Made by a program: the position numbers and the translations under genes. From NCBI GenBank assembly GCA_037379345.1, contig CM074511.1:6200001-6264000 (forward strand): DNA of 64,000 bases, in the 5' to 3' direction. The notes below the pieces were generated by a model that saw only the letters and a list, made by a program, of their open reading frames with translations, was not told the origin of the DNA and made no database searches. Of this stretch, positions 1,022 to 43,075 are shown piece by piece. Within the stretch, counting starts at the first letter, position 1. Each line of letters begins with the position of its first letter. This DNA comes from Perna viridis (taxonomy: Eukaryota).

Positions 1022-3061
1022 ACTCCTTCATCTTCCACCACTGGTAGTGAAGGTAGTGACATAACTGAATCGAAAAGTCCAACTACTGACAAAATAAAGG
1101 AGGCACTCGTCAAAAAGGTCAACAGCAGAAGAAAAGAGGAAGCCAAAGAAGATGAAGCTGATAAGCAACAGCGAGCAATACCTCGGGGTAGGCTGCGAAA
1201 AAAAGTCGAAGTACCTGCTAAGGATGTGAGTGGGGACACTGATAAACCAATTAAAGGTAGGGGTAGGAAGATAGCTACTATAAAATCTGGAAAAGAACAA
1301 GAGCATGACAAAGAGGATAAAGATGTCGTAAAAGTGGATCCTGAAACTAGTGTTACACAAGATAGGCAATTAACAGTTTCAGAAAAAGTAGAAAAAAAGT
1401 CAACCAGAGGTTCTTGTTCTGGTGAAGAAAAGATGGAAGACATTGATACTATCAAAGTTACAAAAGGTAGAAAATCACATGTCACTGATACAATTAAATC
1501 AGATCAACTCCCAACTAGGGGTAGGAGAGCTGTATCTACAGGAAAAGAACAATCTCTGGCTACTAGGCAAACATTAGATCAGGCTAATGAGTCTGTTAAT
1601 TTGATAAATACTGATGATATAGAAACTGTTAAAGAGGAAGAAAAACCTTCTCGTAAAGGAAGGTCAAGAGCATCAACTTTAGCCAAACCAGGGACTTCTG
1701 CTAGCAGCATTAAAGAGAGCCCGCAAGAAAGTGACATCGGTGGAGATGCAGAATCCAATATTAAGACTAGCGAAAATAAAACTTCTATTAGTTTAACTAA
1801 AACTGAAGGGAAAGTGACAATATCCTTTGACAATCGTAGATCAGAATCTGCTGATATTAAAAAGACTGTTGGAAGGAGGGATAGAGGTGCTAACATGACT
1901 GCTGAGGAGGACACTAAAGTAGAGTTAAAAACTAACAGTGATACAAAAACTGTAACAAGGCAAACTAGAAGGGGCAGAAGCTCTGATCAGAGTAATTCTG
2001 AAAGTAATGTTGAAGATCAAAATGAAGGTGAAAGTAAAACTGAACCCAAGCAGGGTGGAAGAAGGCAGTCATCTGGTATACCTAGTAGAGAATCTGGTGA
2101 ATCAGAAAAAGATTTCAAAAATGCAAAAACTGTTGGCAGAAAGGGTAAGCATATTGTGAAAGATGAAACAGAAAATAAAAGTAATAAGGCAGGAACAAGA
2201 AGGAGAGGAAGAAGTTCAGGTTTAGTTAAACAAGATAACAAAGATGATGAATCTGAAAGATTTAAACCAACTGGGAGGCGTGGACTATCAGCTGTTGTTG
2301 ATGACAGTTCCACAGTTGATGACAATAAGTCTGTGAGAAGACAAGGACGACTTTCTAAAGTAGGACAAAATAAAACTGAAGAATCTGATAGTGAAAATAG
2401 TCAGGATAGTGATGCAGGCAGTGTTAGGGGTAAAGGTAAAGGTCAAAGGTCATCTCCTCAGCCTCCGAATAGAATAGAATCTAATCCAGGCACAAGTCGT
2501 CGTGGTAGGATGTCTGTACAACCCATTTGTGACAATAAAGCCAATGAGGTCATGCCACCTCCTAAGGCTGTGGGAAAACGTGGTCAAAAACTTGCAGATA
2601 CTCAGTCAGATAAATCTACCTCTGATTCTCAGAGAATTTCTAGGCAATCTAAACAACTTCAACTTACAAACAGTGTAAAGAAGGAAGAAAAAAGTTTCAA
2701 TTTGGATGATTCTGGTCAACGAGGAAGATCTAGCTCAAGAACTAAAGACTATATAGAAACGATTAATAATGGTGACAGTAAACCTCGGAAAAGAAAACGT
2801 GATTCATCAGAAGGTTCTTCAGATAAACTTAGTAATCAGTCATCTACATCGAAACGGGCAAAAAATGAAAAAACAGACAATATGCCTGATTCAAGTGTTA
2901 ACAAGAAAGCACGAAGTAGAGCTAGTATTGTGGAAGAGATTTATGATTCAGAAGATAAGGACAAATATAATAATAAAAGTAGAACAAAGAAGGAAAATAA
3001 TAATGAGGATTCTGCAGCAGCAAAAACTGGTTCAAGGAAGAGAGGCAGGGCAAGTGATGAG
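1022..3061 (+). CDS. MDC1: MDC1 large disordered Ser/Lys/Arg-rich exon (680 codons)
   Basis: ttacAG at 1020-1021, GTAATA at 3062; 2040 nt open, in frame with ORF 1226..3073. Confidence 0.9.
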
Positions 3062-5386: not shown

Positions 5387-5548
5387 GAAAGTAAAGAAAG
5401 CCCAATTAAGAAAGTCAAGGAAGATGTTTCTACACCAAAGAGAACTAGTATTGTAGGAGTCAGCTCTCCATCATTAAGGAGGAAATCATTAGACCCGGCC
5501 AAACCAAAGGTCATCTTTACAGGGGTCATTGATGAGCATAGCCAGAAG
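5387..5548 (+). CDS. MDC1: MDC1 exon, start of BRCT1 (...AKPKVIFTGVIDEHSQK)
   Basis: AG/GT bounded, 162 nt, phase 0/0; contains the phosphate-binding FTG. Confidence 0.92.
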
Positions 5549-6372
5549 GTATTCTTGTAATATTCTTCAGATATTTTTACTGAGTTTATTCTATTTTGCT
5601 TTTAATCTTTCAGACATTATTACCTTGTACCTTCTGAATAATAGAGAATTGCATTATTTTTTTAATTCATTTGCCTCTGTAAGAAGTACTTTAAACAAAT
5701 AGCAATACATGTACACTAATGTTAAAGGTTAAAATGATTTATGCATGAACTTCACATTTATAAACCAGTTAAAAGGAAATCAATTGAAATCTTTTTTTTT
5801 TTTTTTTAAATCAGTCTTATTGTCAGTCCTAAAGTTTTTGATACAATGAAGCAGTGGAGTAGTTTTAATTATGAAACAAAACTAATATTACCTGCTTTCC
5901 CATTATTTTTTCTTGAAGAGGCTTTTTAAAAGAAATTTTTTATAAGTGCTCTTATGATAGTCTTAACATTAAATACTACTTGCGAGTTCAACTATAATGT
6001 TCCACTAAATCAGTGATTTATGGAATAAGGTGCTGAATGTTGTATGATCATTTTTATTGTCCAGGTTTTGACACACATTAAGAAAAAGATGATAAAACTC
6101 AAAAAATATATTTCATTTAATAAACAAAATAAACAGTCTCATTGAGGTAATTTGCTGGAATAAAATGTTATGAATGCACTGTACTTAGATCTCTGCTGAT
6201 AACCTTGGTTTAATTGTAACAAGGTCAGCATTCATGTCTGTCACTGATTTATCTATATCTTTTTTTTATAGAATTGGTCAAAATTTGACAATTCAAGTAA
6301 TACTCCACATCCACTCATACTGTAGGTAAAAAATACAGTAACTATTCTAACTTATGCATTATATATCTCTAG

Positions 6373-6441
6373 GTAATTAAAGAGCTTGGAGGTGAAATAG
6401 CCAGTTCTGTAACAGAGTGTACACATCTTGTTACTGATAAG
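6373..6441 (+). CDS. MDC1: MDC1 BRCT1 exon (VIKELGGEIASSVTECTHLVTDK)
   Basis: AG/GTAAG, 69 nt; LGG and THLV BRCT motifs. Confidence 0.93.
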
Positions 6442-6484
6442 GTAAGAATTATTATATCAATGGTGAAATTGGAGTACCTTCATA

Positions 6485-6925
6485 TTTTTATATGACCACT
6501 GAAAATTTGCTGTCATATTATGGTATCATAGTCATCATCATTATCATCCATAGGTATTTCATATCCAAAGAATAACTTTATTAGTGTATAGATCTGTTTT
6601 AAATTGAACTGCAAGATGCCAAACCACTAGAGGAACGCTGGGATTAATTCTTAGAGTTGTAACATGAACCATTCAGAATAAACGGGCCAGGAACAAGCAT
6701 TTTACTGATGTCTGGACAATTACTTGAGTAATAACAATTGGTTAAACTGGAATGATTTTGAAGGTTGTGACTTAGGAATTAGGAGCCCAAAAGGGGCCAG
6801 TGCAATGCTGAGCAAGTTCTGTTCTTTGCCTAATTAAAAATCAGAGCTGTATCAAGCTTGAATGGTGTGTATCATCTGTCATGGTTGACCTCTAGTTGTA
6901 TCAAGCTGCATACTGAGTTTCATTA
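6485..6925 (+). mobile_element. Decayed Helentron-like repeat
   Basis: T-run start tttttatatgacc, tcatca microsatellite, end gttgtatcaagctgc; recognised from layout only. Confidence 0.35.
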
Positions 6926-7124
6926 CAAATAGTAAAATACGTATATTTATTTTTTTCAATAACTGAATCATTGATTTGCTAGTAAGATAATTGTTATTGC
7001 TGTCCAGTTTGTAAATAAAATGAATTTAAAATGATCATTAACATTCCTTTTGATTGGAGGTAATTTCTAAGATGTGTATTGTTTCTATGCAGTGGCAATA
7101 CGAGTTTCTATTCCTGAATTTCAG

Positions 7125-7224
7125 ATAAGGAGAACAGTCAAGTTTTTATGTTGTCTTGCGAGAGGTATACCAATTGTGACCTTACAGTGGATAGAAAGCT
7201 GTAAACAGTCAGCCATGTTTGTAG
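7125..7224 (+). CDS. MDC1: MDC1 BRCT1 exon (IRRTVKFLCCLARGIPIVTLQWIESCKQSAMFV)
   Basis: AG/GT, 100 nt, phase 0/1; RRTVKF is the gamma-H2AX-binding signature. Confidence 0.95.
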
Positions 7225-7453
7225 GTAGGTCTTAGTTGATATTTATTTGTTTAGCACATTAGATATACGGAGATATCAGCTGGTGCTAATCAACACTAGT
7301 TATCACTAGAAGCTTTTTCAAAATGCTTTGTAAAAGTCATTTCAGTAAATTAATTATAAAAATGGATAGCATGTAGGAAAGTAAACAGAATTGCAACCTG
7401 TCAGAGTTAATTTTTGTTTTAATAACACATTTTAATGGTATGTTTATTTATAG

Positions 7454-7609
7454 ACTGTAATAAGTTTCCAGTTAAGGATTCTGTGACAGAAAAGCAGTAT
7501 AAATTTTCTTTATTGAGATCATTAGAGAAAGCCAAGGAATCGAGTTTATTACAAGGCTACAAGATACATGTGACCAAGTCGGTCAAACCAGAACCTAGTC
7601 AGATGGCAG
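7454..7609 (+). CDS. MDC1: MDC1 BRCT linker/BRCT2 exon (DCNKFPVKD...KPEPSQMA)
   Basis: AG/GT, 156 nt, phase 1/1; overlaps ORF 7435..7629. Confidence 0.92.
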
Positions 7610-8153
7610 GTATAACAATAGTATTATAGTCAGGGTTGTGTCAAGTTATGATGTATGTATATGTCAACAGGCAAGCTATTCTGACTCTGTGGAGCCATTA
7701 TATAGTAGTCATTTATTAACCAACTTACTACAATATGTATAGAAATGTCCATCCTTTATGAACCGAAAATTTCGATAACTGGTCATTACGAAACCGGAAA
7801 TTCCTTTAGCCGGTTAGGAAATCACAGCCATGCATTATGAATTTCAAAACAGGGCATCAATACTGGGCCATTATGAACTAAATCAAAATGGCTTACACTT
7901 TTTAAAATAAGTGACAACTTTAATTAAGAGTGACCTAATAATTCAATTATAGATGAGGATATTTAAAGTTGCTGAAAGATGGTACTGGGACTAAATATAT
8001 TGAATTATTATGTATGTTTAATCTTGAGCTTTAAAGTTACAATTGGGGGAGGGGGGTGATTATTGGAAAAGGCAGCAAAAATGAAATATCGAAGCAGGAG
8101 CACATACTTTTCTATACAGAAATGCTGAAGAAAAAAGGCGACTTTCATGTTTA

Positions 8154-8309
8154 AGTATCAATGCATGGCCTTTTCCATATTAGCCATGTAACATGCCCTT
8201 GGTATTAATAATGGCCTTCGGCATTGCCTCGGTCCATTACAGTCATCCTTGGCCATTATTTATACCTCGGCATGTTACAGGGCCATGGAAAAGGCCATAC
8301 ATTAATACT
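8154..8309. mobile_element. Palindromic MITE (about 155 bp)
   Basis: agtatcaatgcatggccttttccat..gtaacatgcc / ggcatgttac..atggaaaaggccatacattaatact long inverted arms. Confidence 0.75.
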
Positions 8310-8968
8310 ATATTATCATTGCAGAAAATTTTGTTTAGTAGAATAGAATGGTAAGATGTCGGACATCATTAAAATAAATATTTTTACCCAATGCAAAGAA
8401 GTTACAGAGGGTATAGCATTTTTGATTAGTTTGTTACAGCTTAAATTTTTGTTCAGTTTCTGACTAACTTAGAGGAAGTGATGGAAGCAGTAAAAGCTGA
8501 GGATTGATTTTCATAGAAATCCTTTGAGAAAGGCCAGTTGTTTTTTTTGGATATGCTACAACCTGGGTTAAAGTTTCTTTGTTGTTTTATGACTGATTCA
8601 AATACGGGACTCTCATTGACCAAACAGTACTTACCTAAAACATCAAAAATGTCTAGCTGCCGAGTACCATTAGGGAAGGTGATTGATATTTTAGAACATC
8701 ACAAAATTTAATATTTCAGCAAGATTTTTTTTCAGGAAAATTTCCACAAACATGAAATATTTGACCTTCTAAATATAACATCACCCAGAGAAAAAAAAAT
8801 TCCACTCATAAAGTAATCCAAAAATTAGATTTAAGCTATATTGCATGTATAGAATCTTCATCCTTCAAATTTATTTGAAGGGTTGTTATCCATAGAGTTT
8901 GATTAGAATTGATCACTTTCTGGTGATGAGTGTGGTGTGTGAAATTGCTCACTAAAATTCTGTCATTA

Positions 8969-9898
8969 CCATATTTTCCGGACTATAAGTCGAATTGCCT
9001 AAACTTTACCAAAATCGACAAAAAAAAACATAGATAAGTCGAGGGTCAGACGTGTGCATTTATATTGTACGTGTCAGCAGAGATCCGAGTTGAGCGGTTT
9101 GTTTTCAGCAGCATATTATTCCAGCGATGTTACTAAGTATAAGATTTCGGAATTAAATGTGTTTTTGTTAAAGTGTACTTTGTCCGCGAGTTCATTTATT
9201 TTAATTGAATGGCGTGTCAATTGCCATGACGCCATAGATCATCAGGAATACGAAATCGTAAACATGTCAAACATGGGCAGCCATGTGTGAAAAAAGCAGG
9301 AAATTCGTTTGATGAATTGGTCATAATAAAGAGCGGTAATTAGTAAACAATATAACCTGGTACTAAGAAATACAATTAAAAGTAATTGTTACCTGCAAAT
9401 TTGGTTGCAATTAGCAATTTAGATAACACCTTAATTGAATTATAATTTGAGCCATGTGCGAATGTGTTACGACATACTGTAAATGGGTATAAATTTGCAA
9501 ATTAAAGGACCAATAACTCCAAAACACTCGATAATGTTTTTCGAGCTAAAAAACAGTTTTGTTAACATGTCTTCTAGAGTTTATTTATATATTTTTACGG
9601 TTTCAAAGTCCCAGACTTTCTATTAATGTAATCATATTCATTTATAAAGGATAGTGGCAATGATCAATATTGTACAAATTCAGGCGCAGGTTTCACTGTT
9701 TGAGTGATGGCTTTTGTTGATTGCAGTTTACCAAAAATTTTGAATTAAAGCAATCAAAAGTGAACTAAACGAATCTAAATGAAAAGCATTGTCGATGAAC
9801 ATTTTTCTTTAAAAATCCTTAGATAAGTCGAAGTGGACAACAAGTCAAGGCTGACACTTTGCTGAAAAAAATATCGACTTATTGTCTGGAAAATACGG
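8969..9898. mobile_element. Non-autonomous Tc1/mariner (pogo-like) DNA transposon
   Basis: TA TSDs at 8967-8968 and 9899-9900; TIRs ccatattttccggactataagtcga / tcgacttattgtctggaaaatacgg. Confidence 0.85.
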
Positions 9899-10014
9899 TA
9901 CTTGTGTCAAAATGCCTTCAAAACATATCTCTTCATTTATCTGTGTCAAAGTTTACACAACAGAACTAAATTTGAATTAAAGTGAGTTAATGCAGTTCTC
10001 TCATATATTTTCAG

Positions 10015-10040
10015 AGATAATAAGTTGTGCAGGTGGTGAG
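10015..10040 (+). CDS. MDC1: MDC1 26-nt micro-exon (EIISCAGGE)
   Basis: tttcAG / GTAGGT; phase 1/0 bridges its neighbours exactly; matches the MDC1 EIISCCGG motif. Confidence 0.9.
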
Positions 10041-11434
10041 GTAGGTAAATAAATTATTTAGTGCTCCTTGATTGAACTTAGTAGAAGCTAACAACTCAAA
10101 TATAAGTTAAAGATATAGATGTTTAACCATGATTTTGGAAAAAGTTTTGGTATCAGTTACAGTAAAAACTCATGACATAATTAGATCGGTAAAAGGGTAG
10201 AGTCTATGTGACAGTCAAATATCACAAAAATATCAAAACTACATTGAACCCCCAAAAAATTTTGTATTGATCGATTGATTGTTGTTTTTTAATGCTGTTT
10301 CGGCGACTAGGGTCATATCACCGCAATAGCAAATTTTTTGTACAGGTGCTACAAAATTATAGTATTTGATTACATGTACATGCTAATATTTTGATTAGTC
10401 TAGTCAACTCAGGTGCATAAAGATGGTTGTCTTATGCAAAATATTCCGATTTGTTAATTTCTTACCATAATTTGAATGAAGTAAAAGGGTATTCATGCAA
10501 GTTTCAAAAAGATATTTTATTCATAAGATGCTTATGACAGCATCTTTTTTTTTTTTTATAGTAAAATTTTAATTCAAATTAGAGATAGTTGAAACAATCA
10601 TTTTATGGACTAAAATTTTGCATATAAGGAGTAATTGACAACTTTAACATTCACCATTTATGTTTAATCTGATTGAAACAGTTTTATACTAGACAAAGAA
10701 AGGATATCGGGTTTGGAGGCTGCAAGAATAGTATTAGTAATGTGGGAATACGTTTCCAAATATGAAATATCTGAAATTCTTCTATGGTATATGTATCATT
10801 TAAAAATTCTTTGTAGTAATGGAATAAAGTTGTTTTTCCCTTGGCTCCCAATGACACCCAATCTTATGCCTGTTGACCTTGATATAATTTCAGAATTTTT
10901 TCAGTATGGAAGTGAATGTGAAAGCTGTCTATTCACTAAATTATCTACTTCTTCATCCCTTTCAAAGTGCTATACAAATAGATTGACTTCCTTGACCTTA
11001 CATTATTGATGGGGTGCAGAGGTGTCACTAAGGAACATTTGCCCATAGATTTCTTGTTTTATTTTATTAGTCTGTGTTTGTAGAATGATATGAAATATTA
11101 TACCAATTTGTCTAAAGCTGTTAGTCGACATGTTTTATTTCAAACACCTATTTGATAATATGATCATGAACCAGTTTTAATCTCGGTAATATGACATTAA
11201 TGATTCTGATTAAAATCTTGTACCTGCTTACAGAAATTACAACAGTTTATATTCAGTTTTCTCTTATCTTTGAAGTTAAGTACTGGTACATGATTTGAAT
11301 GTAATTCAATATTGTGGTTGAAGATCTCTTGGAAAGCAGAACAAAAAAATAGAATGTAAAGATAACTAATTGAATTGAAACAGTTCAAAGAAAGTAGTAT
11401 AATTGAACCTCTCCTTATAGTCACATTTGATGAA

Positions 11435-12085
11435 CTTGTCCTTATAGTCACCTTTGAGGAACGGCCATTTTAAAACTTGTCCTTAAAGTCAACTTTGAGG
11501 AACGGCCATTTTAAAACCTGTCCCTATAGTCACCTTTGAGGAATGGCCATTTTAAAACTTGTCCTTAAAGTCACCTTTGTGGAACGGTTACTTTAAAACC
11601 TGTCCCTATAGTCACCTTTGAGGAATGGCCATTTTAAAACTTGTCCTTAAAGTCACCTTTGTGGAACGGTTACTTTAAAACTGTCCCTATAGTCACCTTT
11701 GAGGAATGGCCATTTTAAAACTTGTCCTTAAAGTCACCCTTGTGGAACGGTTACTTTAAAACCTGTCCCTATAGTCACCTTTGTGTAACGGCCATTTTAA
11801 AACTTGTCCTTAAAGTCACCCTTGTGGAACAGTTACTTTAAAACCTGTTCCTATAGTCACCTTTGTGGAACAGCCATTTTAAAACTTGTCCTTAAAGTCA
11901 CCTTTGAGGAACGGCCAATTTAAAACCTGTCTTATAGTCACCTTTGTGAAATGGTTACTTTCAAACCTGTCCCTATAGTCACCTTTGTGGATTGGCCATT
12001 TTAAAACTTGTCCTTAAAGTCACCTTTGAGGAACGGCCATTTTAAAACTTGTCCTTATAGTCACCTTTGATAAATGACCACTTTC
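11435..12085. repeat. About 41-bp minisatellite, about 16 copies, alternating A/B units
   Basis: Unit cttgtccttaaagtcacctttgaggaacggccattttaaaa; starts at 11435 and 11476. Confidence 0.95.
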
Positions 12086-12761
12086 AAACACACATAATTG
12101 ATTTCCCTACTTATTTTAACACCATTCAACAGTCACTTCTTGTTGGATGGGGACAGTGGTCACCCATTGATCTTGCTAATAAAATACACATGTACAGTTC
12201 AGGGAATTGTCAAAAGGTGTAAAACTCTCCTCACTGATAGGTAATAAATGATTAGATATAGTTCAGTTGTTTGAGTCGCTGCCAGGTTGGAAAATATTGA
12301 CTCTTGTCAAAAGGCAGGATAACATTACAATTGCTCTTTTGTTAAACAAAATACATGTCTATGAAAGAAAATGAAATTGACAAAATAGACACATGCATGC
12401 TTGAAGTCTACTGGCCTAGTTTTGTTATGGAAGCAGTTCTTGTCTTATTTCAATAAGAAGTAAATGGCCTTAATAAAGTCAATAGATTAATGAGAGAATA
12501 CATTATTATGGCTCATTTTAAAGTTCAGAAAGATTGTATCACAAATCACTGTTAAGAGTACATAAATAAACTAGAAAAGGTGGAATTGACCTGAAGAGTA
12601 CATAAGTAGACTATTCATGAAATGCTGTAGTATCTTATTTCCTACATTTATACCTTTCAATATTTGACAACCATACCAAGGAAAGTGGGAGTTGTCTGTG
12701 CATAAAATTTTATAATATCATAGTATTCAGGAATTGAAGTGCACATTATTTTCTTTTTCAG

Positions 12762-12922
12762 TATTTGACCACCATGCCAAGGAAAGGGGGAAATAATACT
12801 GTGATAATATCCTGTCCTGAGGATGATTCAGTCTGTAAGACAGCTATGAAAGCTGGTATACCAGTCGTTACTTCAGAATTTATCCTGACAGGGATACTCA
12901 AACAAGAAGTCAGCATTAATTC
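12762..12922 (+). CDS. MDC1: MDC1 BRCT2 exon (YLTTMPRK...EFILTGILKQEVSINS)
   Basis: tttttcAG acceptor; ends at the U12 donor ATATCCTTT; phase 0/2. Confidence 0.9.
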
Positions 12923-14194
12923 ATATCCTTTATTTTAAATTTGCCTTACGGTGACTAGTTCTTGAGTATATGTATAAAAAAAGTCTAATGGTCCATTATC
13001 TTTAAATGATTATTTTCATGCCCTGTTTTTAGGCATCAGGGACATTAAGTTTTACTGGTGTTCATACCTGTGTATGTCTGTTCCATAGTTATTTGTCAAA
13101 AAAAAATAATTCAGCAAACCTTAACAAGTCTGCACCTTAATGGTTTGTATGATGTGCAAACTTTTTTGCTCAGTCACACTTCCTATTTGTCAGACATGGA
13201 TTCAAATAGGTGTGGGTCTTAGGTCTTGGACTCTCACTCAGAACATTATAAACTATGGTTAATTTTGTTGTTTATGAATATGGGGACCTTCTATCTATTA
13301 AACACCTCTTATTTTCTTTTTTTTTTTTTTGTGGGTATGGTGTCCATCTGTCCTTTTTTTTGCAGAGAGTGCTCATTTCTTTGCTATTACTCCCTCTCCA
13401 CCGCTGAATGGAATTTAATGAAATTTTCACAGAATCATGATATTCCCATTGTGCACTTTCTATTTAAGAATTTGAGTCAAATTATTCTGGAAGTTAAAAG
13501 ATATATGTTATTGTTTGTGGGAGTAGGGGTATCAATTAAGTTAGCATTGCTCTCTATTTTTTCTCATTATGGTACATCTCAACTTTGAGTTGTTGTTTTT
13601 TTTTTTAATTGAATGATATAAAACTTGAATATGTCATTTTTATGATTCCAAAAACCAAAATGCAGTGTTGTGGCATTATTAACACAAGTTCCTGTTTATA
13701 GTCTATCTCTCAGCTGTAAAGGTCTCCTTTTAAAATATTCACAGAAAGTGACACAGATAAACATTTTGATAAACATGGTCTTGGTCCTTCAGAACTTAAC
13801 ATTAAGCTGTATGATGGACCTTTGGTTTCTCTCAAGTGGACACCTTTCATTCCAAATTTTAAAAAGTTAATGAACCATCCACTCTCAACAGCATGTTTGA
13901 TCCCATGCTGGAACAGTCTTGTTGATTTTTATGGTTCCTCAATTTTTCTTCAAGGAAATCTTAATGGAAATGATTTGAAATTTTATTTTAAAATTTTAAG
14001 GTAATTTTTTTTTAAATAGGTAATTTGTATTCTGTGTAAACTCTCAAAGAATGCAGCTGTAGCAGACAGTGAGATTAAAGTTAGGCAGTATTGAATGAGG
14101 TTTAATATTGGTGCCAGGTTTTCTATTCATCAGTCTGTGTTGTTACGTCTTGGTAGTAGTTTGATATATATAGTTAGTCCTTAACTTACATTAC
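12923..14194 (+). other. U12-type (minor spliceosome) AT-AC intron
   Basis: 5' ATATCCTTT at 12923; branch site TCCTTAAC at 14178-14185; TAC acceptor ending at 14194, 10 nt after the branch A; splicing keeps the frame. Confidence 0.88.
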
Positions 14195-14252
14195 ATACGC
14201 ATTACACCCAGACAGCCTTAATACATTGACCAGTGGAAGGAGGAGAAGATGA
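14195..14252 (+). CDS. MDC1: MDC1 terminal coding exon ((S)YALHPDSLNTLTSGRRRR*)
   Basis: In frame after the AT-AC intron; TGA at 14250-14252. Confidence 0.8.
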
Positions 14253-14697
14253 TACCTAGTTTTAGCCTTGTTTTAATAGTGTTATTATTAATTGACATGT
14301 TTAGTCGTATTGTTTCCTGCACTACATAGATCATTTTGGAGGTGGCCAATGTGTCAAATCCTCCAATCAAAATTGGAAATCACCCATAAGAATGTGAGTG
14401 GTAAAAAAAATTGAAGTTAAATTTGTCATGAGCAGTATGAGTTGGTATTTTGTTTACTGATAATTTGTCCTTAAGCCATTATATGGAGCGACATTAACTC
14501 GTACTTCCACAAATCAACCAATAATTCTATGTGTATATCGTGCTTACTTTCATGGCTCTGTGTTAAATCTAGACTTTCTCAAAGAAACAGTGTCTTTTTC
14601 CAAAGAATTATGTGCAGAACATTGGAATTAAACTGAAAGGAATTTAATTTTCCAAAGAAGTTTTGGGAAATAATATTTTAATGTTTATTGTTTAGAC

Positions 14698-15327
14698 TAG
14701 GGATGACAACAAAACTCTCAAGTACTTACTCATAAGGTGAAGTACTAAGAAACAAATTATGTGTTGAAATACTTGTTTGTGTTTTGAATATCTTGATGCA
14801 TTTCATCAAGTTCCCTGTATTATACTAATTAATATCAATTAACGACATACAAACAGTTAGTAAAGGTGTTTGTAGACGGACACTTACATGGATCATTAAC
14901 TGGTAGGCGACAAACTTGTGTTTGATTGTTAATCAATGTGATTGATATATAATGAACATTCATCATTTGCTAATTAATGATGAAATGTAGTTTTGTACAC
15001 ATAATTAGTCCTATATTTTGTTTACTTTGAGGAAAAGCAAAATGTTGACTTTTAGGAAAAGCAAGTCTATTCTCATTAACTTTTCAATGATTTTTTTTAC
15101 ATGTCTCTCATTTGGTACATAAACACAAAAATATAATAATAGCTACTTTGAAAGGTTATTTGTTGGAAAGATGGTTAGTATATTTATAATTCAACTCGGG
15201 AGTATTGAAGGTTGTAAGAAAAATACTGCTTTCCAACAAAAAATCTGATACTTTTTACCAAATCATGAAGTTCTATCCAAGTACTCAAGTATTCTAGTAT
15301 AAAATTTCATATCTTTTGCCATCCCTA
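14698..15327. mobile_element. Non-autonomous hAT element just downstream of the MDC1 stop
   Basis: TIRs TAGGGATGACAA / TTGCCATCCCTA; 8-bp TSD gtttagac / gttaagac (7 of 8 match). Confidence 0.85.
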
Positions 15328-18300
15328 GTTAAGACCTAACATAAGAGAAATAATTTTTAATATTACTTAGTGACTAAATTACATAATAGTACATCAATCA
15401 TATCTAAATACTTTTCAATTCATATAATTGGCCTGTTAGATATTGTGATACATCTGTTTATAAAAAAATATAGATCATTAACAGCAGCCTTCAAAGTAGT
15501 CACGACATATAAAGTTTTATATGCAAAGAATGTTTGATCCTTTTTTTACATACATGTACCACACGTTTTAAATGTCTGTTCATGATGTATCTGTATTTAT
15601 TATCTCCACTCAGTAGATTATATTCTGTCTTGTGATAATGTTTCACCTTCCTGAGGTTGGGGTTTTAGGGGTACTTTTGTTATTTTCACTTAGATAGGGC
15701 ATTAGTTAGGCATTGATTAAATTATACAAAAAGAGGCAGCAAGGAAGTACAACCACCTCATCCAAGTTACTTGTTGCTTTTTAGTGTAAAAAATGTACGA
15801 ATTCAAAAGAGAAAGTGAATGTTAGATGTAATTTTATGTCACATATGCTTGTCAAACGACAGTAGAATTCTACTTACATTTTTATTATTCATCCAGTTTG
15901 TGATTGATAACTTGTATTTAGAATACACTAACATTGATGGTAACCCCCATTTTATGATTATTTGACCTGCATTTTTAATACTGTTTGCTGTAGAAAGCAT
16001 TTAATATAATACAAGAGGTATGATAAATTATTGTTTTACTGGGAGATTTTAACCCAGGGTCAATATTTCGTGTGACTATATGGCACTGGTCAATATGAAA
16101 GTTAACTATGTTTTAATTTAGAGCATTATCTTTTATAGGTAATTTTCACCAACTTCATTTGTACATGTGGCAGTGACTATGGTTGTATTTCTAGTTATTC
16201 TTTGTGCATAAATTTTATCTCATTCACTTTTTTGTATGTTTTCGTTGATTATTTTAAAATTATTATATTTTAATCGATCATTTTTTTTCCGAACATGAAA
16301 AGATTATTTCTGACTTTATTAAGTTGTAATTGAAGTAAGACATAACATTTGTGGTGTCAAAGTTACATGACCTTTGTGGTGTCAAAGTTACATGACCTTT
16401 GATAGAAGTACATTATAAGTAGATTTATAATACTGTGTTAAAAATGTAAATGTTTCAAGTGAATGGATTTTTAAAAATTTTTGCCATTGAAGAACATGTA
16501 GTATTATTTTTGAAATTCATAATAGAGCTTTGAAGCAGTTTAATTTTTAATAAACTTACAAGGAAGAGGAATATTTTTGTCAACTTAAGCAAAAATTACA
16601 CTGACAATTTTTATCTTAAAGCTGCCTTCATTTTATATACTTCCTTGACACTTATGGTGTTTGTTTCAACAAACTTTTTCAGTAAGAATCTTTGAAAATA
16701 TACAAAATATAGACAAATATGTACCTACAAAAATGTAATAGAAATAATATTTTTAAATATAGAAAAATCAAAATTTTGAAACCAATAAACAAAGCTTAAA
16801 ATAATGGAAAGCATAGTGTTATGATAAATGACTGTATATTTTACTGTGTTCTTTGAAGTATTAAATATTGCTGACTAGTGACAGTTTTTCTCCAGTCACA
16901 TGTCAAGATTTAATACATGAATGTTTAAAAAAAAAACAGCTTTTTAACATAATTTATCAGCTCTCAACTATTACTCATATTCATATCATACTCATTTTAA
17001 TTGACAGTGAAAATAAAATGTTCACTTTTGATGCTTCTTTTAGTTACTCCTATTTGCCATTATTTGCTTTTAACAAAAAAACTTTTGATCTCTTACTTAT
17101 GTCACCAGCTTCTCATATACATGAAATAAAATTTTATTATGTAAAACCATTAGTTTTATTACTTTAGTGGTACCATTGTTCTTTAACAGAAGAAATTTAA
17201 AAAAATGATACTGTGTACCCAATCTACCAAATTTATGTTAAGATTGATACCTATAACCTGAATAGAACAAAAACATGTCAAATTCAGGAGCATCAGTAAT
17301 CTGTATTAGTTTCTCTTCTTTTTATACCTGTATAAATGTCTTGGGGTGGAAAAGAGATGAAGATTTTAGTAGGTAAAACGGTCTTAAATTTTGATCACAA
17401 GGTCACACTTCACACTCTACGATAAACACACAAGAACTGACACAACCACAAAAAGATACTCTATTCAGTACTGCAGAGACTTTAGAAAATGTCAGTTTGA
17501 TTCGCCATAGTTCATAGAAGTAGCTATTTTGAAATGTTTCATTTTCTCCTGCTACGTTTGAAGAATTCAAGTGTAAATTGAACATTGACACTCAAATCTA
17601 CAGATGATAAGCTTTTTATTGTGAATTTTTCGTTGTGTCATGATTAGAATTGTTTTAGTTAAAAATGGTAAGATTGTTTTTTCTTGTTGGAATAAGTAGA
17701 GTCTGACTTGGTCCTATTGATAATTATGAAGGGTATTATTTATCTCGATTTAATTAAAGAATCTGTATGTTCGTTAAATGTACATAGTGTTAAAAAGAAA
17801 AATAAATCTCGAGTAAAATTGCTTACTATTCACTGCACAAGTAGGTGAATATGTATTACTTCGCTTGGATTGCCTCCCGTTGTGAATATGTTTTACTTCG
17901 CTTGGATTGTCTCCCGTTGTGCAGTACAGAAGAGAAGTTTTGCAACTTTTCTCGTTCTTTTTTGTGATACATTTGTATATAATACATGACTTTGTACATC
18001 ATTTAAAAAAAAAAAAAAAACAGCGCTACGATATGCGACAATTTTTACCCATCTGCTCGTTATCCGTTTTGTCGTAGGGTCTTGTCGCTACTAATATTCT
18101 ACTAACTTTGGTGAATGGCTATATAGTAGTAACAAAGCATTGCTTGGATTGCATTTCATGAAATAAGTCGAGGGAAACTTTTTAGGAGTTTGATTTGAGC
18201 TTGACACATGGGTAGCACCTCCATATTTTGACCTATTCACTTTAAAGTTCGTTGAATGAAGTTAAGATGGGATTGATTTTCACAGTCAAAAGGGATTGAT

Positions 18301-23050: not shown

Positions 23051-24260
23051 AGAGAATTCAAAGGAAACAAGATCTTAGCGGAAATCAAAAGAATGCAATC
23101 CAGGGACAAAGACAAGACAGGGAAAACAGACGCGCACAACAAAGAGCTAAAATAACCAAAAATAATACGTACAAAGCAACAAAAGTAAATGAACAACTCG
23201 GACTCCACTAAAAACTGAGCACGGACCAGGTGCATCAGTATAGTAAGCGTCCTCTGCTTTTCTAGAAACATCAGGCGAGTTGCTCATAAAAATTAAAGTC
23301 CGGGTTAGACGAAAGAGGAAAGGAAAAGTATGACACGTTAAATCGGTTTTCATGGTGCAGATAGATACACCGTAACGCACAACGAGTATAAAATTTCTGT
23401 AATGATAACTCCAATCTTGTGGTAATATAACTTTGTTTCAGATGGTCTAGAGGTACAAAAAGTCTGCGTAATTACAAGCTCTGACATAACGTATGAGTTG
23501 TGAAACGAAAACCCCATACACAGGTGCTGAAGGAATGTTGTCACAGATGAAAGGAAAGTTGACAACACGGAATGAAAAGTCGTCGTTTGTCGTGTAGTAT
23601 GGTCAATAGTTTTCCTTCACCACGGATCTCTAAGTGTAGGTCAAGATAGAGGCTGACTTCAGAGTGTCTGTCGAGTATTCTGCATCTCAAGTTGTTTTGG
23701 GTAGATGTGATGAATAAAATCCCCGAAACTAGGATTGTTTAACGGTAATACATCTATATAACAGAAACTGAGATCAAAGGATCTGGCTACACGATGGTTC
23801 TTCTTTTGGATCAGATCAGCTAGTAAGTCAGCCTAATAAGTATGAAGGAATAGGTCAACAAGTAAAGGAGCACAATTTGTTTCCATTTGATGAAAAACGG
23901 GTCCACCACACTGGACAAATATGTTGTCTATAAAAAATACAGCATTTTGAAAACATATTTTTCGGGTATATTTGGATTTAGAACTGTTTTTCACTAAGAG
24001 TGAGGAGTCTCTACCAAGTACTATATAAAGGTATCTAGTGTAAGTTTATTTCAGTAACAACGATGTATAATGTGTTTGAGTCGGGATTTTAACTGAGTAT
24101 AGGGAATAGAAATATTAAGAGTTGAAAATCATAGGTTTTAATGCTATTGTATTCTGATAATTAGCATGAATTGAGGGTTTCCAGAAAATCTTTGAATTTT
24201 TCAGGACCCACATTGAATTATTCCCACTAGGGTTGTAACAAGTGTCCCGGTAAGACTGGA
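23051..24260 (-). mobile_element. Penelope-like retroelement fragment (RT plus 3' region), decayed
   Basis: Remnants of TYDFS..IP.TQLKSRL, FLIDNIFV and DDFSFRVVNFPFICDNIPSAP..SQLIRYVRAC; the 3' region aligns with 49232-49935. Confidence 0.8.
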
Positions 24261-24354: not shown

Positions 24355-25670
24355 TACAAGTTCTGGATAATACACCTTTCATTCAAATGTACTGTGAGTT
24401 CTGGATACACCATTCATTCAGAATTATTTCAAGTTCTGCATACACCTTTCATTTAGATGTGTTGTAAGTTCTGAATACACCTGTCATTCAGATGTACTGT
24501 AAGTTATGAATACACCTGTCATTTAGATGTACTGTGTGTTCTGGATACACCTTTCATTCAGATGTATTGTAAGTTCTGAATACACCTTTCATTCAGATGT
24601 ATTGTAATTTCTGGATACACCTTTCATGCAGATGTACTGTATGTTCTGGATACACCTGTCATTCAGATGTACTGTATGTTCTGGATACACCTTTTATTCA
24701 GATGTGTTGTAAGTTTTGGATACACCTGTCATTCAGATGTACTGTATGTTCTGAATACACCTTTCATTCAGATATGTTGTAAGTTCTGAATACACATGTC
24801 ATTCAGATGTACTGTATGTTCTGGATACACCTTTTATTCAGATGTGTTGTAAGTTCTGGATACACCTGTCATTCAGATGTACTGTATGTTCTGAATACAC
24901 CTTTTGTTCAGATGTACTGTATGTTCTGAATACACCTTTCAATCAGATGTATTGTGAGTTCTGAATACACCTGTCATTCAGATGTACTGTATGTTCTGAA
25001 TACACCTTTTATTCGGATGTACTGTATGTTCTGAATACACCTTTCAATCAGATGTATTGTGAGTTCTGAATACACCTGTCATTCAGATGTACTGTATGGT
25101 CTGAATACACCTTTCATTCAGATGTACTGTATGGTCTGAATACATCTTTCATTCAGATGTGTTGTAGGTTCTGAATACACCATTCATTCAGATGTACTGT
25201 ATGTTCTGGATACACCTTTCATTCAGATGTATTGTAAGTTCTGGATACACCTTTCATTCAGATGTACTATGTTTTGGACACACCTGTCATTCAGATGTAC
25301 TGTATGTTCTGGATACACCTGTCATTCAGATGTACTGTATGTTCTGAATACACCTTTTATTCAGATGTGTTGCAAGTTCTGGATACACCTGTCATTCAGA
25401 TGTACTGTATGTTCTGAATACACCTTTCATTCAGATGTACTGTATGTTCTGAATACACCTTTCATTCAGATGTACTGTATGTTCTGAATACACCTTTCAT
25501 TCAGATGTATTGTAAGTTCTGAATACACCTGTCATTCAGATGTACTGTATGGTCTGAATACACCTTTCATTCAGATGTCCTGTATGGTCTGAATACACCT
25601 TTCATTCAGATGTATTGTAAGTTCTGAATACACCATTCATTCAGATGTGCTGTACGTTCTGAATACACCA
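24355..25670. repeat. 35-bp minisatellite, about 37 copies
   Basis: Unit ttctgaatacacctttcattcagatgtactgtatg; period 35 (24541 to 24576). Confidence 0.97.
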
Positions 25671-27793: not shown

Positions 27794-28034
27794 TCAATTC
27801 TGATTCATTTGTAAATAATTGACATTATCGCCAATTTGCTGTCCAGCAGCATTGCACTCTTTGTGCACAGGATGTAACAATCTAACATCTAAATTAGCAT
27901 TATGTTCCCTTAGAGACTCTCTGCTATAATGTTCCACTAAAAGATTGATGTCATTAAATGAACAGTGTTGAGATGTGAAGCCATACTTATTATTGTCTTT
28001 ATAGATTAAACAATGTCCAACTGAACCTTGAAAT
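27794..28034 (-). CDS. PIK3R1: p85-like terminal exon: cSH2 C-part plus tail ending DNVNYLQMNQN*
   Basis: tttcAG acceptor; GHCLIYK..YGF..LVEHYSRESLREHN.NLDVRLLHPV; TGA at 27796-27794. Confidence 0.92.
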
Positions 28035-28498
28035 CTGAAAAAGATGAAAAAAATTAATATGATTATTTGAATGTTTTCCAGTTTTTACAAAATTTTTAAA
28101 TATGCAATGCGTATTTTGGATGAATGCAGGCTTTGATGTATCTTATCTGAATGACCTAGATAATTCTGATTCATAATGTTTATCTTAACATTATGACCTA
28201 TTTATCCAAAATCCAATGGTTTGCTCTACATTTTATGATATGATATCAAGTTAGACTCGAGTGATTTCTCATCATCACATGACACATGGGACTACTTATC
28301 AAATCATATATTTAACCTAGAAATCGTGAAATGTTAGGTACTGATTAAGTTCAGCTCCTGCATTTAAAAGTACATTGGTTTTAAAGATATTTGACCTGGA
28401 CACAGGTAACTCTATCTTATCAAGTAAAACAAGGATTTCTTTGACCAAAACCAACAAGTTAAAATCATAACTAAGTAAAACAAATAGTTTTTACTTAC

Positions 28499-28639
28499 AC
28501 AATGGACAGCACATTTTTATTGGCATCATCTTTTTTCGGTCGGATTAAGAATGTACCATCTCTCTGGTTTACTAATAGTCTTTCTGCCTCTGGACGATCA
28601 CAGTCTACAAACCAATCTTTCTCTTCATGTTTCTGTTTA
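28499..28639 (-). CDS. PIK3R1: p85-like cSH2 N-part (HEEKDWFVDCDRPEAERLLVNQRDGTFLIRPKKDDANKNVLSIV)
   Basis: AG/GTAAGT, 141 nt, phase 2/2. Confidence 0.92.
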
Positions 28640-29252
28640 CTGTAAAACAAAAAAACAATTGTGTCATTTGTTTAGAACTAAATATCTGTAACAAATACTA
28701 AAAATCTTATGAAAAGTGAGGTCGGCCATATTTTACAAAAATATTTTCCATAAAAATCCCTCTAGCTTATTTATCAATCCTATCAAAAGGAAATAACACA
28801 TAATTAGCTATCATGCCATCCTGATCTATTTATGGTGATAAAAAATGGGTGAAATATAGACTTTAAAAAATATGTCACATGCTTTACAACTCTTGAACAG
28901 CATATTTTAGATTCAAAACTTATGTAGCAGTTTGTAATTAAACAGGTGAAGCATAAACCAACATGAAGACACTTAACAGGTATGTATGTATCATTGCCCC
29001 AAGGCATTTACATACATGGAAGCATTCACCGTGGCAACCATTACTTGTTGACATATCTATGTCGCATACATTATAGAAAACAAATGTATGATGGTGGTCT
29101 CCAACGACTATTCACATAATTATACATTTATAAGTATTTTATGCAGAATGTGTTCGCATTAGAGAAATAAAGACACAGTGGACAGCATTCAAACAAAGTG
29201 GTTAATTCTCTACAGCCAATAGCATCACAGATAGACTTGTTTTATAACTTAC

Positions 29253-29489
29253 CTTTCACTTTCTAAAATTTTTTCAATTAATTCTGCAGGATAATTTTGG
29301 TCTTGTAAAAACTTCTTAATTTGATCTCTTTGTTTATTTAATCTTTTGATTTCTGGTCGTAGAGCATTCATGTCACTAATCAGAGACCGGTTCTTTTGTG
29401 TCTTTTCAGCAATATCATTTTCTAGCTGTTCTTTGCTACGTGTTATACTATCCAACCTCCCCTTCAACAAATCATAATTCTCTTTCAAT
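29253..29489 (-). CDS. PIK3R1: p85-like iSH2 coiled coil, helix 2
   Basis: AG/GTAAG, 237 nt; NYDLLKGRL..MNALRPEIKRLNKQRDQ. Confidence 0.93.
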
Positions 29490-30645
29490 CTGAAATTACA
29501 AAAACATTCATTGTTATTTCATCTGACTTTGAGAGCCATATGACAAGTTAGTTTATTTTTCATTTCAATTAGGGTTGTAAAAACACACTGACTTTGTTTC
29601 AATTCCTACATGTACTCAGATGACAGAAGTTAAACAACTTTATATCCTTAATCAATAGTTATGTTACTTAGCAACCAGATAATATAGTCATTTATGTCAT
29701 AATTTATCTTACTCTTTCTGCCATTTCACTAAACACTTTTTATGGGTGGTAATTTATCAATCAAATAAAATTAATTCAAAAGTGGGTTAATTTCAGGTAT
29801 AAAGTTGGTCACCGAATTTTTACAGCTTTCTAATCAACATGAATTAAAGTCTAATACAGATTGGATTTGTAATAACTTTCACTTTTATCATATGTTCTGT
29901 AAGAACTGTTATTATGTTACTCCATAATCTAATCAAGGATTATCTAGGATTTATAATCCCTAATCTATGAGGCATTGGCAATTACAGGTTATGAGGACAT
30001 TATTGGAGACCTTGGATACCATGGAAACCAATTAATTTTGTCATATTACTTTCATTACATTGTATGTGTATTGAGTAGGTGGATAGATTCACATAATGCC
30101 AAGTATAGCATAAAAAACACATAAACATTAGACAAACAATGATAAATAATGAGTTTTCTGTTGACCATACTGGGTCACTATTGTCATAATTACACTGCTG
30201 AACTATTCTATCAATGTCTAGGAAAGGGACATGTTATATTTAGGTCACCATAAACATGTCTCTTAACACCATTAATGTCATGAATTGCAAGTCTGAACCA
30301 ATGGTTGGTTGTAGACCTATCATCATTCATTGATTGGCCTACAATACTGTTGTCTTATTATAATTAAACATATTTTATATGTATAAGTCTGAAGCCACTA
30401 CATAAAAATAGCTAATGTTAGTACGATTTCCTTATGCAAACCTACTGGTTACATGACTTGTGGTAAAAATAACTCATAAAAAAAGAATAATAAAAAAACG
30501 ATATAAAATAAGACCAAATCAACTGAACAGGGCATTTCCTAAACAAAACATTAAATGATTCACTAACAAAAAAATATACAACAGCTTATTCAATTTTCAG
30601 AAATTTCCCCCTAAATTCTCAAATTTAAGATGTGGAGTTTCTCAC

Positions 30646-30775
30646 AGACTTGCTACAAGTCTCTCTGTAATATATATTTTATTTGATTAAATATCATTAC
30701 TATCAAATATTCATTCACTATCAAACTGCCGTAATCAAATAAAATATAAATTACAGAGAGACTTGTAGCAAGTCT
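30646..30775. mobile_element. Small hairpin/MITE with 44-bp inverted arms
   Basis: 30646-30689 is the reverse complement of 30732-30775 (one mismatch); gtttctcacaga is repeated on both sides. Confidence 0.8.
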
Positions 30776-30809
30776 ATGTTTCTCACAGATTATAGTATCA
30801 TGTCTGTAC

Positions 30810-31042
30810 CTTTGTAAATCTCTGACTGAAGCATCAGCATGGTGTCGCTTATGTAATTCCAGCTGCTCTTCAAATACTTTCACTGTTTCTTTAAATGCAT
30901 CCAAAGCCTGATGTTTGAGCTGAAGTTCTTGGTTAAGTTTAGAATGATCCTCATAGTGTCGATCATATTCATTCATCTTTTTGAGGTAGTCATTATGAAC
31001 TTGTTGTAGTGTTTGTACCTCCTGAGATACATCTGTATATAC
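30810..31042 (-). CDS. PIK3R1: p85-like iSH2 coiled coil, helix 1
   Basis: AG/GT, 233 nt, phase 0/2; QELQLKHQALDAFKETVKVFEEQ. Confidence 0.93.
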
Positions 31043-31777
31043 CTGTAAGAATTAGGCTATTGATTAATAGACCAGAATAAATTTTTTCCAAGCATTAGCT
31101 TTCTATTTCCCTAAGGGAGCTTAAAGTGTACCACAGTAATTATACTTGAAACCCAAATCTGGGAAGTTTTGTAAAATACTTATACATCAAATCTGACACT
31201 TAGGTGTATAATGAACTCATAAGTATCAAATTCTAACCATAGCTAATAACAGAAGGTCAAATTGAACAATAGAGAAATCTGTCTACTGTAATATCTGTTA
31301 GTAAAATTGTCAGATTGGGACCAAGGAAGTCAATTTTAAAAATATAGGAATAGACCTCAGTAATACATTTCTTACCAGTGGCTAATTCCCAATGAAATGC
31401 ATCACAAAATGTTCAATTACTTTAACGTAAACAAGTTTAATGTTAGTTCTACCAGATACCATTTATCAAAACAGACTAAGATGTACAGATAAACTTTGTG
31501 GTCTCATTTGATGAATATGTAGCTAATACCTCCCTTAATGGGTAAATATTAATGTAGTTCCTTGTAGGTACTTGTACTGATACCTAAAATACATATCAAG
31601 TGCTACTATGGGAATCCACAGAAAAACATGATTAACAAAGTAAAACATGCTCCTGAATATTACATTTCTTTCCAAATGTTGTCTATAAAATCTTCCATGA
31701 AATCATCAATAAATGTTAGAAGAAAATGCATGAAAACCCAGAGTTATTTCCCTCTAATGCATTAAGTTAATACTTAC

Positions 31778-32249
31778 AGGATTGACATCTCTAGAGACCT
31801 TGTGAAGCAGTTTGATATTCAATGTCTTGTTATATATTGCTAAAGAATTGTGTTTATAATGTTCAATTAGTTCCACCACAGAATCAAAGTTGAGAGGTTC
31901 CACAAATCCATATTTCCCATCTTTGTGATAAATCTTGATTAATTTATTTGTGCCACCTTTTCTTAAAGTCAGTGTGTAGTCTCCGGGTGAGGTGGCATCA
32001 CGAACTAAGAATGTTCCATCAGCTTTATCCCGTAAATGTTCGTTCACTTCCTCACGTGAAATGTTTCCCCAGTACCAGTCAGCATCTCGTAATTGTTCTT
32101 CGGGAGTGATCATACCTGTTTCATAATTGTTAGGATGAGTTCTTGGAGGAATGGGTGGTGCTAATGGGGGTGTTGTCTCACCCCAATTTCCATTTTTTAA
32201 CATTTCTTCAATAATGTCTATGTGTAGTTTTGTATTATCCACGATTTCA
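31778..32249 (-). CDS. PIK3R1: p85-like exon: end of BH, Pro-rich PPIPPR, nSH2
   Basis: AG/GTAAGT, 472 nt; inside ORF 31754..32278; GTFLVRDA. Confidence 0.96.
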
Positions 32250-34227: not shown

Positions 34228-34426
34228 ATGATTTTCTCCCATGGAGGTCTTAGCAGTATATGACAGAAAACATGTGACAGTTTATCTAAGCCATCAGATG
34301 TCCCAGACTCATGCTGTATTCTCCATAGTCTTATGAAATGTCCCATCAGGAAATGAAGTGTTGATTTGTGTGGCTGGGGTAACTGGGTTGTGAGATCAAT
34401 TAAGTTCTTAGAAGCCTCTGGACTCT
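34228..34426 (-). CDS. PIK3R1: p85-like RhoGAP exon (KSPEASKNL...LPQPHKSTLHFLMGHFIRL...LSHVFCHILLRPPWEKI)
   Basis: AG/GTAAG, 199 nt, phase 1/2. Confidence 0.9.
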
Positions 34427-34626
34427 CTGTAATTATATTGTAATACTAATTAAATGACACTTCTATGACAATTGCCAGTTTTTTTGTTTAATCAACTTCT
34501 TGCATCAGTAATATGAAAATTAAGTAGCAATAGTTCAACACAGTTTTCATTATTTTTTCTCATGCATCTATTTTTATCAAATAATGGCTTGAAATAAAAC
34601 TGAAATACTCAGACTAATTGACTTAC

Positions 34627-34761
34627 TGGCAGCTGTGATAAAGCTGTCGTACAGTTCTACTGGAACTACTGGATTAGGTAGTTCTCTCAGGTATTTCTTC
34701 AATACTCCTGCTACACAGTGAACATTGAACTGGGACAGGTTCACTTGAGAGGGGTCCGTAG
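34627..34761 (-). CDS. PIK3R1: p85-like RhoGAP exon (ATDPSQVNL...VAGVLKKYLRELPNPVVP...FITAA)
   Basis: AG/GTAAGT, 135 nt; LK.YLRELP.P RhoGAP motif. Confidence 0.93.
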
Positions 34762-42763: not shown

Positions 42764-42994
42764 TCATACCATTGTTAGAAAAAAACTATTGGTACATACA
42801 ATGTTTGGACCAGAATAACTAATGGTACATACCCTGTTTGGCCCAGAATAACTATTGGTACATACCATTGTTGGACCAGAAGAACTAATAGTACATACCA
42901 TGTTTAGACCCAAATGACTAATGGTACATACCATGTTTTGGCCAGAATAACTAATAGTATATACCATGTGGACCTGCATAATATTGGTACATAC
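42764..42994 (-). repeat. 33-bp tandem repeat containing copies of the exon's 5' splice site
   Basis: Unit GTATGTACCATTAGTTATTCTGGNCCAAACATG, 7 units, starting exactly at the donor. Confidence 0.9.
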
Positions 42995-43075
42995 CAGGGT
43001 TGGATCTCTTCCACAAAGTTCATCTATACACACCATCAACGACATCTTGTGGAAATCATCTTTTATACCAAGTTC
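42995..43075 (-). CDS. PIK3R1: p85-like exon, SAM domain C-part (ELGIKDDFHKMSLMVCIDELCGRDPTL)
   Basis: poly-T cAG acceptor, GTATGT donor, 81 nt; L.ELGI....H...L...I..L SAM helix 4-5. Confidence 0.85.

Follow-up and report, generated by a model that had tools for sequence, protein, structure and literature searches.

The last coding intron of an MDC1-like gene in Perna viridis is a spliced U12-type AT-AC intron, probably homologous to a minor intron of PAXIP1

Introduction

PAXIP1 (PTIP), whose tandem BRCT region is paralogous to that of MDC1, is catalogued as a minor-intron gene with two minor introns in human and mouse (PMC6717393), and supplement 8 of that study places the 3' one at chr7:154944165-154946364 in human and chr5:27742504-27744114 in mouse. 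Zebrafish paxip1 is listed with two rnpc3-responsive minor introns (PMC11347168). MDC1 gave no hits in the human and mouse minor-intron supplement of PMC6717393, and mdc1 none in the zebrafish supplement of PMC11347168. Molluscs are reported to be relatively rich in minor introns (PMC10639083). Judged by title and the start of the abstract, the literature search returned no related work on MDC1 or PAXIP1 with U12-type or minor introns, and the intron described here may already be contained in the online databases behind PMC10639083 and PMC11347168.

The last coding intron of the MDC1-like gene of Perna viridis shares with the animal U12-type AT-AC introns described in these sources (PMC6717393, PMC11347168, PMC10639083) its consensus donor, its AT-AC ends and a spacing of about 10 nt between branch site and acceptor. 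It is likewise a single minor intron amid GT-AG introns, at a position where GT-AG and AT-AC subtypes are exchanged, but it differs from the catalogued cases in residing in a non-model invertebrate and in splitting the final BRCT motif. The sources searched do not list MDC1 among minor-intron genes; the intron is real and likely old.

Results and discussion

Structure of the MDC1 locus

The window, i.e., the whole 64-kb stretch of DNA that was analysed, covers the 3' portion of an MDC1-like gene encoded on the + strand, in which a 2-kb low-complexity exon (1022-3061) is followed by short tandem-BRCT exons; an N-terminal FHA domain would lie upstream of the window. Its C-terminal tandem BRCT region is closest to MDC1 by sequence comparison and matches the Pfam profiles BRCT_2 and RTT107_BRCT_5, and PAXIP1 is a separate locus on C8. 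The penultimate exon matches BRCT_2 (E 1.3e-11) and compares with Mytilus edulis MDC1 at 72%, a level that points to a mytilid other than Mytilus as the probable source. The features of the 3' end are as follows.

5387..10041, + strand: upstream tandem-BRCT exons with GT-AG introns between them; five GT..AG joints in the same RNA-like contigs, among the joints listed
12763..12922, + strand: penultimate MDC1 exon, most of the second half of BRCT2, ending in phase 2 within a Ser codon
12923..14194, + strand: U12-type AT-AC intron of 1272 nt, last coding intron of MDC1, spliced in RNA-like runs
12923..12931, + strand: U12 5' splice site ATATCCTTT, reading Y-P-L in frame; predicted to pair with the genome's own U11 and U6atac
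12936..12938, + strand: in-frame TAA, reached on intron retention; covered by 0 RNA contigs
13118..13135, + strand: second candidate branch site and acceptor, unused
14178..14185, + strand: U12 branch-site motif TCCTTAAC, with a predicted U12 duplex
14192..14194, + strand: 3' splice site TAC, from the RNA joint
14195..14252, + strand: coding part of the last exon (final Tyr-x-Leu of BRCT2, linker, RRRR and stop), from translation, RNA contigs and alignment to human MDC1 structures
14253..17140, + strand: likely 3' UTR of about 2.9 kb with AATAAA at 17125, a weak hint from contig-length arithmetic

Translation of the last exon yields an 18-residue peptide ending in GRRRR, with TGA at 14250-14252. 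If the RNA-like contigs are colinear with the genome beyond 16500, to which they were placed, 6 of 7 contig ends would fall near 17104-17137, adjoining the AATAAA, although assembled contigs cannot show transcript ends. A micro-exon of 26-27 nt at 10015-10041 is present in all RNA contigs shown.

Splice signals and splicing of the terminal intron

All motifs named in an earlier, sequence-only reading of this DNA were found in place. The donor fits RTATCCTTT and TCCTTAAC lies close to the acceptor, both sites being exact matches to the U12-type consensus; the last base of the acceptor TAC is 9 nt past the TCCTTAAC motif and 10 nt past the A at 14184. The second candidate consists of ACCTTAAC at 13118-13125 and AC at 13134-13135, and the read-through ending Y-P-L-F before the TAA was confirmed. 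Within the 64 kb, however, three donor 9-mers occur vs. 1.49 expected (21 of 100 shuffles reach three), and two branch-plus-acceptor matches vs. 0.65 expected (19 of 100 shuffles reach two), such that neither enrichment is significant. Further ATATCCTT matches occur at 1820, 29642, 52014 and 10707; the one at 1820 was rejected as lying within a coding exon and the one at 52014 as preceded by no open frame. Each motif alone thus falls within chance for the window and the first database match ends in Y-P-F, as would be expected if the gene simply ended in Y-P-L-F-stop and the downstream sites were accidental.

The RNA joint, rather than the motifs alone, leads us to accept the intron as real. 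Twenty-four runs are listed as assembled contigs only and none is on record as RNA; we examined eight, whose assignment as RNA-like or DNA-like is a guess and whose tissue and condition are not recorded. The joint from 12921 to 14194, which skips 1272 nt with 4 nt of ambiguity, was found in seven of seven RNA-like runs from seven studies; it can be placed in five equivalent ways, of which 12922^14195 alone yields canonical ends (AT..AC). X1, X2 and X8, from three studies, each contain a contig of 6.7-8.6 kb that passes through five GT..AG joints and then makes the 1272-nt skip, among the joints listed. In X10, X14, X18 and X19 (four further studies) the same joint is the sole one in the table. 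The spliced contigs have depths of 11.7-29 and, where shown, each also holds upstream exons; the penultimate exon appears in the seven runs as a piece at 12760-12921, with a joint ambiguity of 2-4 nt. In the DNA-like run X15 (0 of 1) the joint is absent, as are the upstream GT..AG joints among those listed. The exon pattern has one match only in this genome, which makes a retrocopy unlikely.

The last MDC1 intron is therefore a real, spliced U12-type AT-AC intron, and the spliced product proposed from the sequence is the one that is made. An accidental origin of the sites is refuted by the exact joint in all RNA-like runs, its absence from the DNA-like run and the single genomic locus without sign of a retrocopy, and we assign it practically no probability. 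The weaker second acceptor, present in the sequence, proved to be unused: no joint was found at 13134-13135, nor at the +4 position 14198, in the full tables of X10, X14, X18 and X19, and depth is zero at 13092-13165 in four runs.

The genome encodes matches to the minor-spliceosomal RNAs (two each for U12, U11 and U6atac, one for U4atac), all above the Rfam cut-off. Nucleotides 15-25 of U12 are predicted to form a duplex of 10 pairs with one bulge at the branch site (-9.1 kcal/mol), compared with scattered pairing at the second candidate (-5.7), and pairing with the donor is predicted at -5.2 for U11 and -7.5 for U6atac; U11 is also predicted to pair with the branch region through a shared TCCTT. 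From minor-spliceosome biology, U11/U12 would recognise the donor and the branch site, U6atac would then take over the donor, and ligation would provide the Tyr-x-Leu that finishes BRCT2, together with the tail and 3' UTR. With good confidence we view the last MDC1 intron as one that is spliced and belongs to the U12-type AT-AC class; it is likely of early-animal ancestry, and its removal likely gives the normal basic-tailed protein.

Retention of the intron

The sequence-only reading had further proposed that the intron could toggle the C-terminus of MDC1. In this scenario, low minor-spliceosome activity would leave a retained mRNA that is exported and escapes junction-dependent NMD, giving a folded, tail-less MDC1 with altered import or chromatin binding. 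U6atac-dependent control of minor introns has been published (PMC3728624), and the mouse Paxip1 3' minor intron appears in the retention table of PMC6717393 for 6 of 11 tissues; however, the Paxip1 values there are all exactly 1, including those in the cryptic-site categories, and may represent a mapping shift. In human nuclei, unspliced U12 transcripts are targets of the exosome (PMC4066798), and most mouse minor introns are recorded without retention (PMC6717393).

In the seven RNA-like runs no contig crosses the donor at 12922/12923 and no transcript contig ends within the intron, although contigs lose rare variants, and low or stress-induced retention could thus go unseen. X10, X14, X18 and X19 (four of four) show zero depth over 12944-13387 and 13980-14127, and bin 12780-13153 contains the exon share alone in X1, X2 and X8 (three of three; 5.5, 11 and 10, i.e., 142/374 of 14.5, 28.9 and 26.4). 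In the former four runs, the pieces that fall in the intron are a short repeat close to 13404 and a single contig of 252 nt at depth 2.1 (X18, where the spliced contig has depth 25), and X1 holds one 355-nt intronic contig of depth 4; upstream GT-AG introns hold comparable small contigs at depths of 2.6 and 3.3. The intron contains no AATAAA and two ATTAAA only. The spliced form dominates in the sampled assemblies and, judging from contigs only, we lean toward near-complete splicing. Slow splicing would likely affect the amount of MDC1 mRNA, via nuclear retention and exosome decay, rather than give a second protein. This resembles the U6atac switches of Younis 2013 (PMC3728624), in that one minor intron could limit the output of a stress-response gene; that model alters mRNA amount, whereas a productive tail-less MDC1 isoform is a proposal only.

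Protein endings across MDC1 homologues

Endings were compared in 121 homologues (the best 120 of 507 plus one cluster member). A basic tail is found in 102 of them, ranging from corals to reptiles, and appears to be the conserved default ending of MDC1. Eleven sequences lack the tail and have Y-P-F/L at the junction as their ending; they come from bivalves, gastropods, a nemertean and a holothurian. Seven have neither ending (six sea-urchin sequences and one chiton model), one misses the anchor, and the tail and Y-P-F/L never occur together within this set. Because Y-P-F/L is the spelling of a phase-2 RTATCCTTT donor, these endings represent donor footprints. Of 116 further representatives, which were new among the best 150 of 2507 rows, 73 were tailed, 5 had Y-P-F/L, 35 had neither ending and 3 had no anchor. 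Among the five with Y-P-F/L are Lymnaea, an Asterias-like sequence and two with cnidarian best named matches (71% and 63% to Stylophora). Another of the five, the model of Argonauta hians (P0186), reads through the donor yet reaches a basic tail, probably because the annotator picked a cryptic GT donor. Read-through footprints hence span bivalves, gastropods, a cephalopod, a nemertean, echinoderms and cnidarian-like sequences.

Y-P-L/F endings in databases likely mark gene models that miss the intron, in line with the earlier suggestion that annotators overlook the last exon. Read-through and spliced models coexist in close pairs from M. edulis (P0001/P0121), a holothurian (P0057/P0151-2) and an asteroid (P0173/P0106), the M. 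edulis read-through model being in GenBank and the spliced one in RefSeq. Recognition of the intron corrects a recurring annotation error, as the MDC1 models of at least 12 invertebrates lack the last exon and the basic tail. Four of four M. californianus RefSeq isoforms (P0002, P0122-P0124) end in donor read-through, unlike the models of M. edulis, M. trossulus and M. coruscus, which may be due to retention, to a defective acceptor or to a modelling error. The RefSeq models of Tubulanus and Gigantopelta also end in read-through, and such RefSeq models could stem from transcripts that truly retain the intron. In cluster P0177, two Logan-only members end in Y-P-L on contigs of 1450-1472 nt that may be DNA or RNA.

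Several observations on these endings speak against a regulated switch. Both endings occur together in none of six multi-isoform RefSeq sets. The read-through tails vary from 0 to >40 residues and diverge even inside a 90% cluster, and the peptide following Y-P-F/L shows no conservation among the homologues. In-frame stops are not significantly closer in the read-through frame (median 8 vs. 13 and 11 codons; Wilcoxon p 0.17 for 27 donors, which are not independent).

A tail-less protein as such is plausible, since natural examples exist in sea urchins (P0040, P0041, P0043, P0047, P0051, P0056) and among mammal-like sequences (P0265, P0269, P0276), a distribution that suggests separate losses of the tail. 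The tail has a bipartite look in oysters and scallops and is a single Arg cluster here, and it may act as an import signal. The nuclear import consensus is K-[KR]-x-[KR], and four other such motifs are present in the large upstream MDC1 exon, which also counts against the switch. The literature on MDC1 localisation signals that we found makes no mention of a C-terminal tail; the tail is conserved on most non-mammalian MDC1 examined, and no paper on its function was found. With no donor-crossing contig and no transcript contig ending inside the intron among the seven RNA-like runs, an unused second acceptor, an unconserved peptide and four other K-[KR]-x-[KR] motifs upstream, the toggle is unsupported, and we regard it as unlikely. 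If it were true, the minor spliceosome would be tied at the protein level to the DNA-damage response, for which there is no support here.

The BRCT2 fold at the junction

The oyster BRCT pair aligns ungapped to the human MDC1 structures 2etx, 2azm, 2ado and 3k05 (E about 1e-52), and the alignment runs through the terminal aromatic-x-Leu. The junction is located just ahead of this motif, which closes BRCT2 in human MDC1 and has a nearly invariant Leu. The human chains lack the basic tail, whereas most non-mammalian MDC1 examined continue into it. In AlphaFold models of two stand-in proteins, a spliced holothurian and a read-through Lymnaea sequence, the residue following the Tyr takes part in a terminal beta-bridge in both, and the tail of the spliced stand-in has a pLDDT of 57-63. 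According to these models, the last exon would complete the fold and add a flexible tail. The donor-encoded Y-P-F/L is predicted to substitute for the missing end of BRCT2, the Pro of the read-through stand-in being placed in the terminal bridge that the spliced form also has, which speaks in favor of the switch. The earlier claim that both endings leave the BRCT pair largely intact accordingly holds as a prediction, from AlphaFold of stand-in proteins, that each completes the second BRCT.

The donor in other MDC1-like loci

A search pattern that did not itself contain the donor yielded 102 metagenome loci, comprising 47 MDC1-like and 11 PAXIP1-like loci; the other 44 were dropped as chance or bacterial matches based on HMM score and inspection. 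RTATCCT lies exactly 17 nt past the pattern in 32 of the 47 MDC1-like loci, the same codon as here, compared with three hits in total at all remaining offsets up to 150 nt. At the level of distinct MDC1-like sequences the donor is present in 23 of 30 (22 of GT and 1 of AT subtype), and at the level of clusters in 4 of 11, one of which holds 18 of the 23 distinct donor sequences. The seven clusters without the donor include L026, the tail of which resembles, by eye, those of many fish-like representatives.

Whole introns with a branch site and a basic last exon were found in two of the 20 donor loci with at least 400 nt downstream. L027 carries an AT-AC intron of 1441 nt with the same branch-to-acceptor spacing as in Perna viridis, and L017 a GT-AG intron of 252 nt. 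Scanning the 18 other donor loci gave no complete intron with last exon, and the large GT-subtype cluster no convincing last exon within 3 kb. L050 passed the last-exon rule and was rejected for its weak branch site. L048 contains the MDC1 exon end and U12 donor in tandem, 74 nt apart, as a duplication or an assembly artefact.

The intron might be kept under selection as a dosage rheostat, with slow U12 splicing tying the MDC1 level to minor-spliceosome activity. Such a role has been proposed for other DNA-repair genes, and it fits the anatomy of our preferred reading, to which it adds adaptive regulation. However, the donor is missing from 7 of 11 MDC1-like clusters and from this genome's PAXIP1, 467 mouse minor introns are tabulated without retention in any of 11 tissues (PMC6717393), and largely neutral evolution of minor introns has been argued (PMC10639083). 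We consider a selected rheostat possible but rather doubtful.

Relation to the PAXIP1 minor intron

In this genome, the PAXIP1 3' exons lie at C8:11599133-11602750 (L117, L120, L122) and were located by family and protein searches, two pattern searches having missed the gene. In the PAXIP1 exon L120 the frame stays open up to the stop codon, and the site of the MDC1 intron holds no donor; a search for PAXIP1 homologues returned three close relatives only. Among the 11 PAXIP1-like metagenome loci, ten lack the donor, and the exon of L071 (527-600) carries ATATCCTTT, an AT-AC-type U12 donor, at the MDC1-equivalent offset on a contig that stops before the acceptor.

Supplement 1 of PMC6717393 lists for mouse Paxip1 a 5' splice site with the exon end ATC followed by ATATCCTTT. 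This fits a Glu-Ser/Tyr reading at the aligned end of the human PAXIP1 chain 3sqd, which corresponds to the MDC1 junction. The fit draws on three nucleotides of flanking exon and on the alignment to 3sqd, and the table gives one 5' splice site per gene. Quite likely the listed site belongs to the 3' intron. The two introns would then resemble each other in interrupting paralogous tandem BRCT regions at the same codon and phase, and differ in that PAXIP1 continues for about 4 residues after the intron, whereas the last exon of MDC1 carries the basic tail. Vertebrates have the minor intron in PAXIP1, while this genome has it in MDC1 and not in PAXIP1.

On the sequence comparison, the MDC1 intron is probably homologous to the vertebrate PAXIP1 3' minor intron. 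The simplest reading would be one intron in the common ancestor of MDC1 and PAXIP1, kept in one gene and reciprocally lost from the other depending on the lineage; parallel gain is a possible alternative. A probable minor intron common to two old paralogues and reciprocally retained provides a marker for dating the MDC1/PAXIP1 duplication, and the pair offers material for studying minor-intron loss and AT-AC/GT-AG conversion. A bolder combination of these ideas holds that the intron predates the split and acts as a fail-safe. It would sit three residues short of where the gamma-H2AX-reading BRCT fold ends, and its donor would spell a working Tyr-x-Leu; at low minor-spliceosome activity, invertebrate MDC1 would then be folded and tail-less like that of mammals rather than broken, vertebrates having kept the PAXIP1 copy and lost the MDC1 copy. 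This we deem improbable.

Other features of the window

Tandem arrays occupy 11433-12070, 24369-25669, 42784-43004 and 58959-59804 (units of 41/82, 35, 33 and 42 bp, respectively), the first within the intron that precedes the penultimate MDC1 exon. High-copy repeats, with depth >2000 in the DNA-like run, lie within MDC1 introns at about 13400-13440 and 7500-10500. Open frames at 48989-49471 (+ strand) and 23350-24045 (- strand) are related and decayed and look by eye like retroelement remnants; the frame at 48989-49471 had no good Pfam match. The convergent neighbour of MDC1 at 27797-34804 on the - strand, probably continuing to about 43000, is PI3K regulatory subunit p85-like, with two SH2 exons as well as inter-SH2 and RhoGAP matches.
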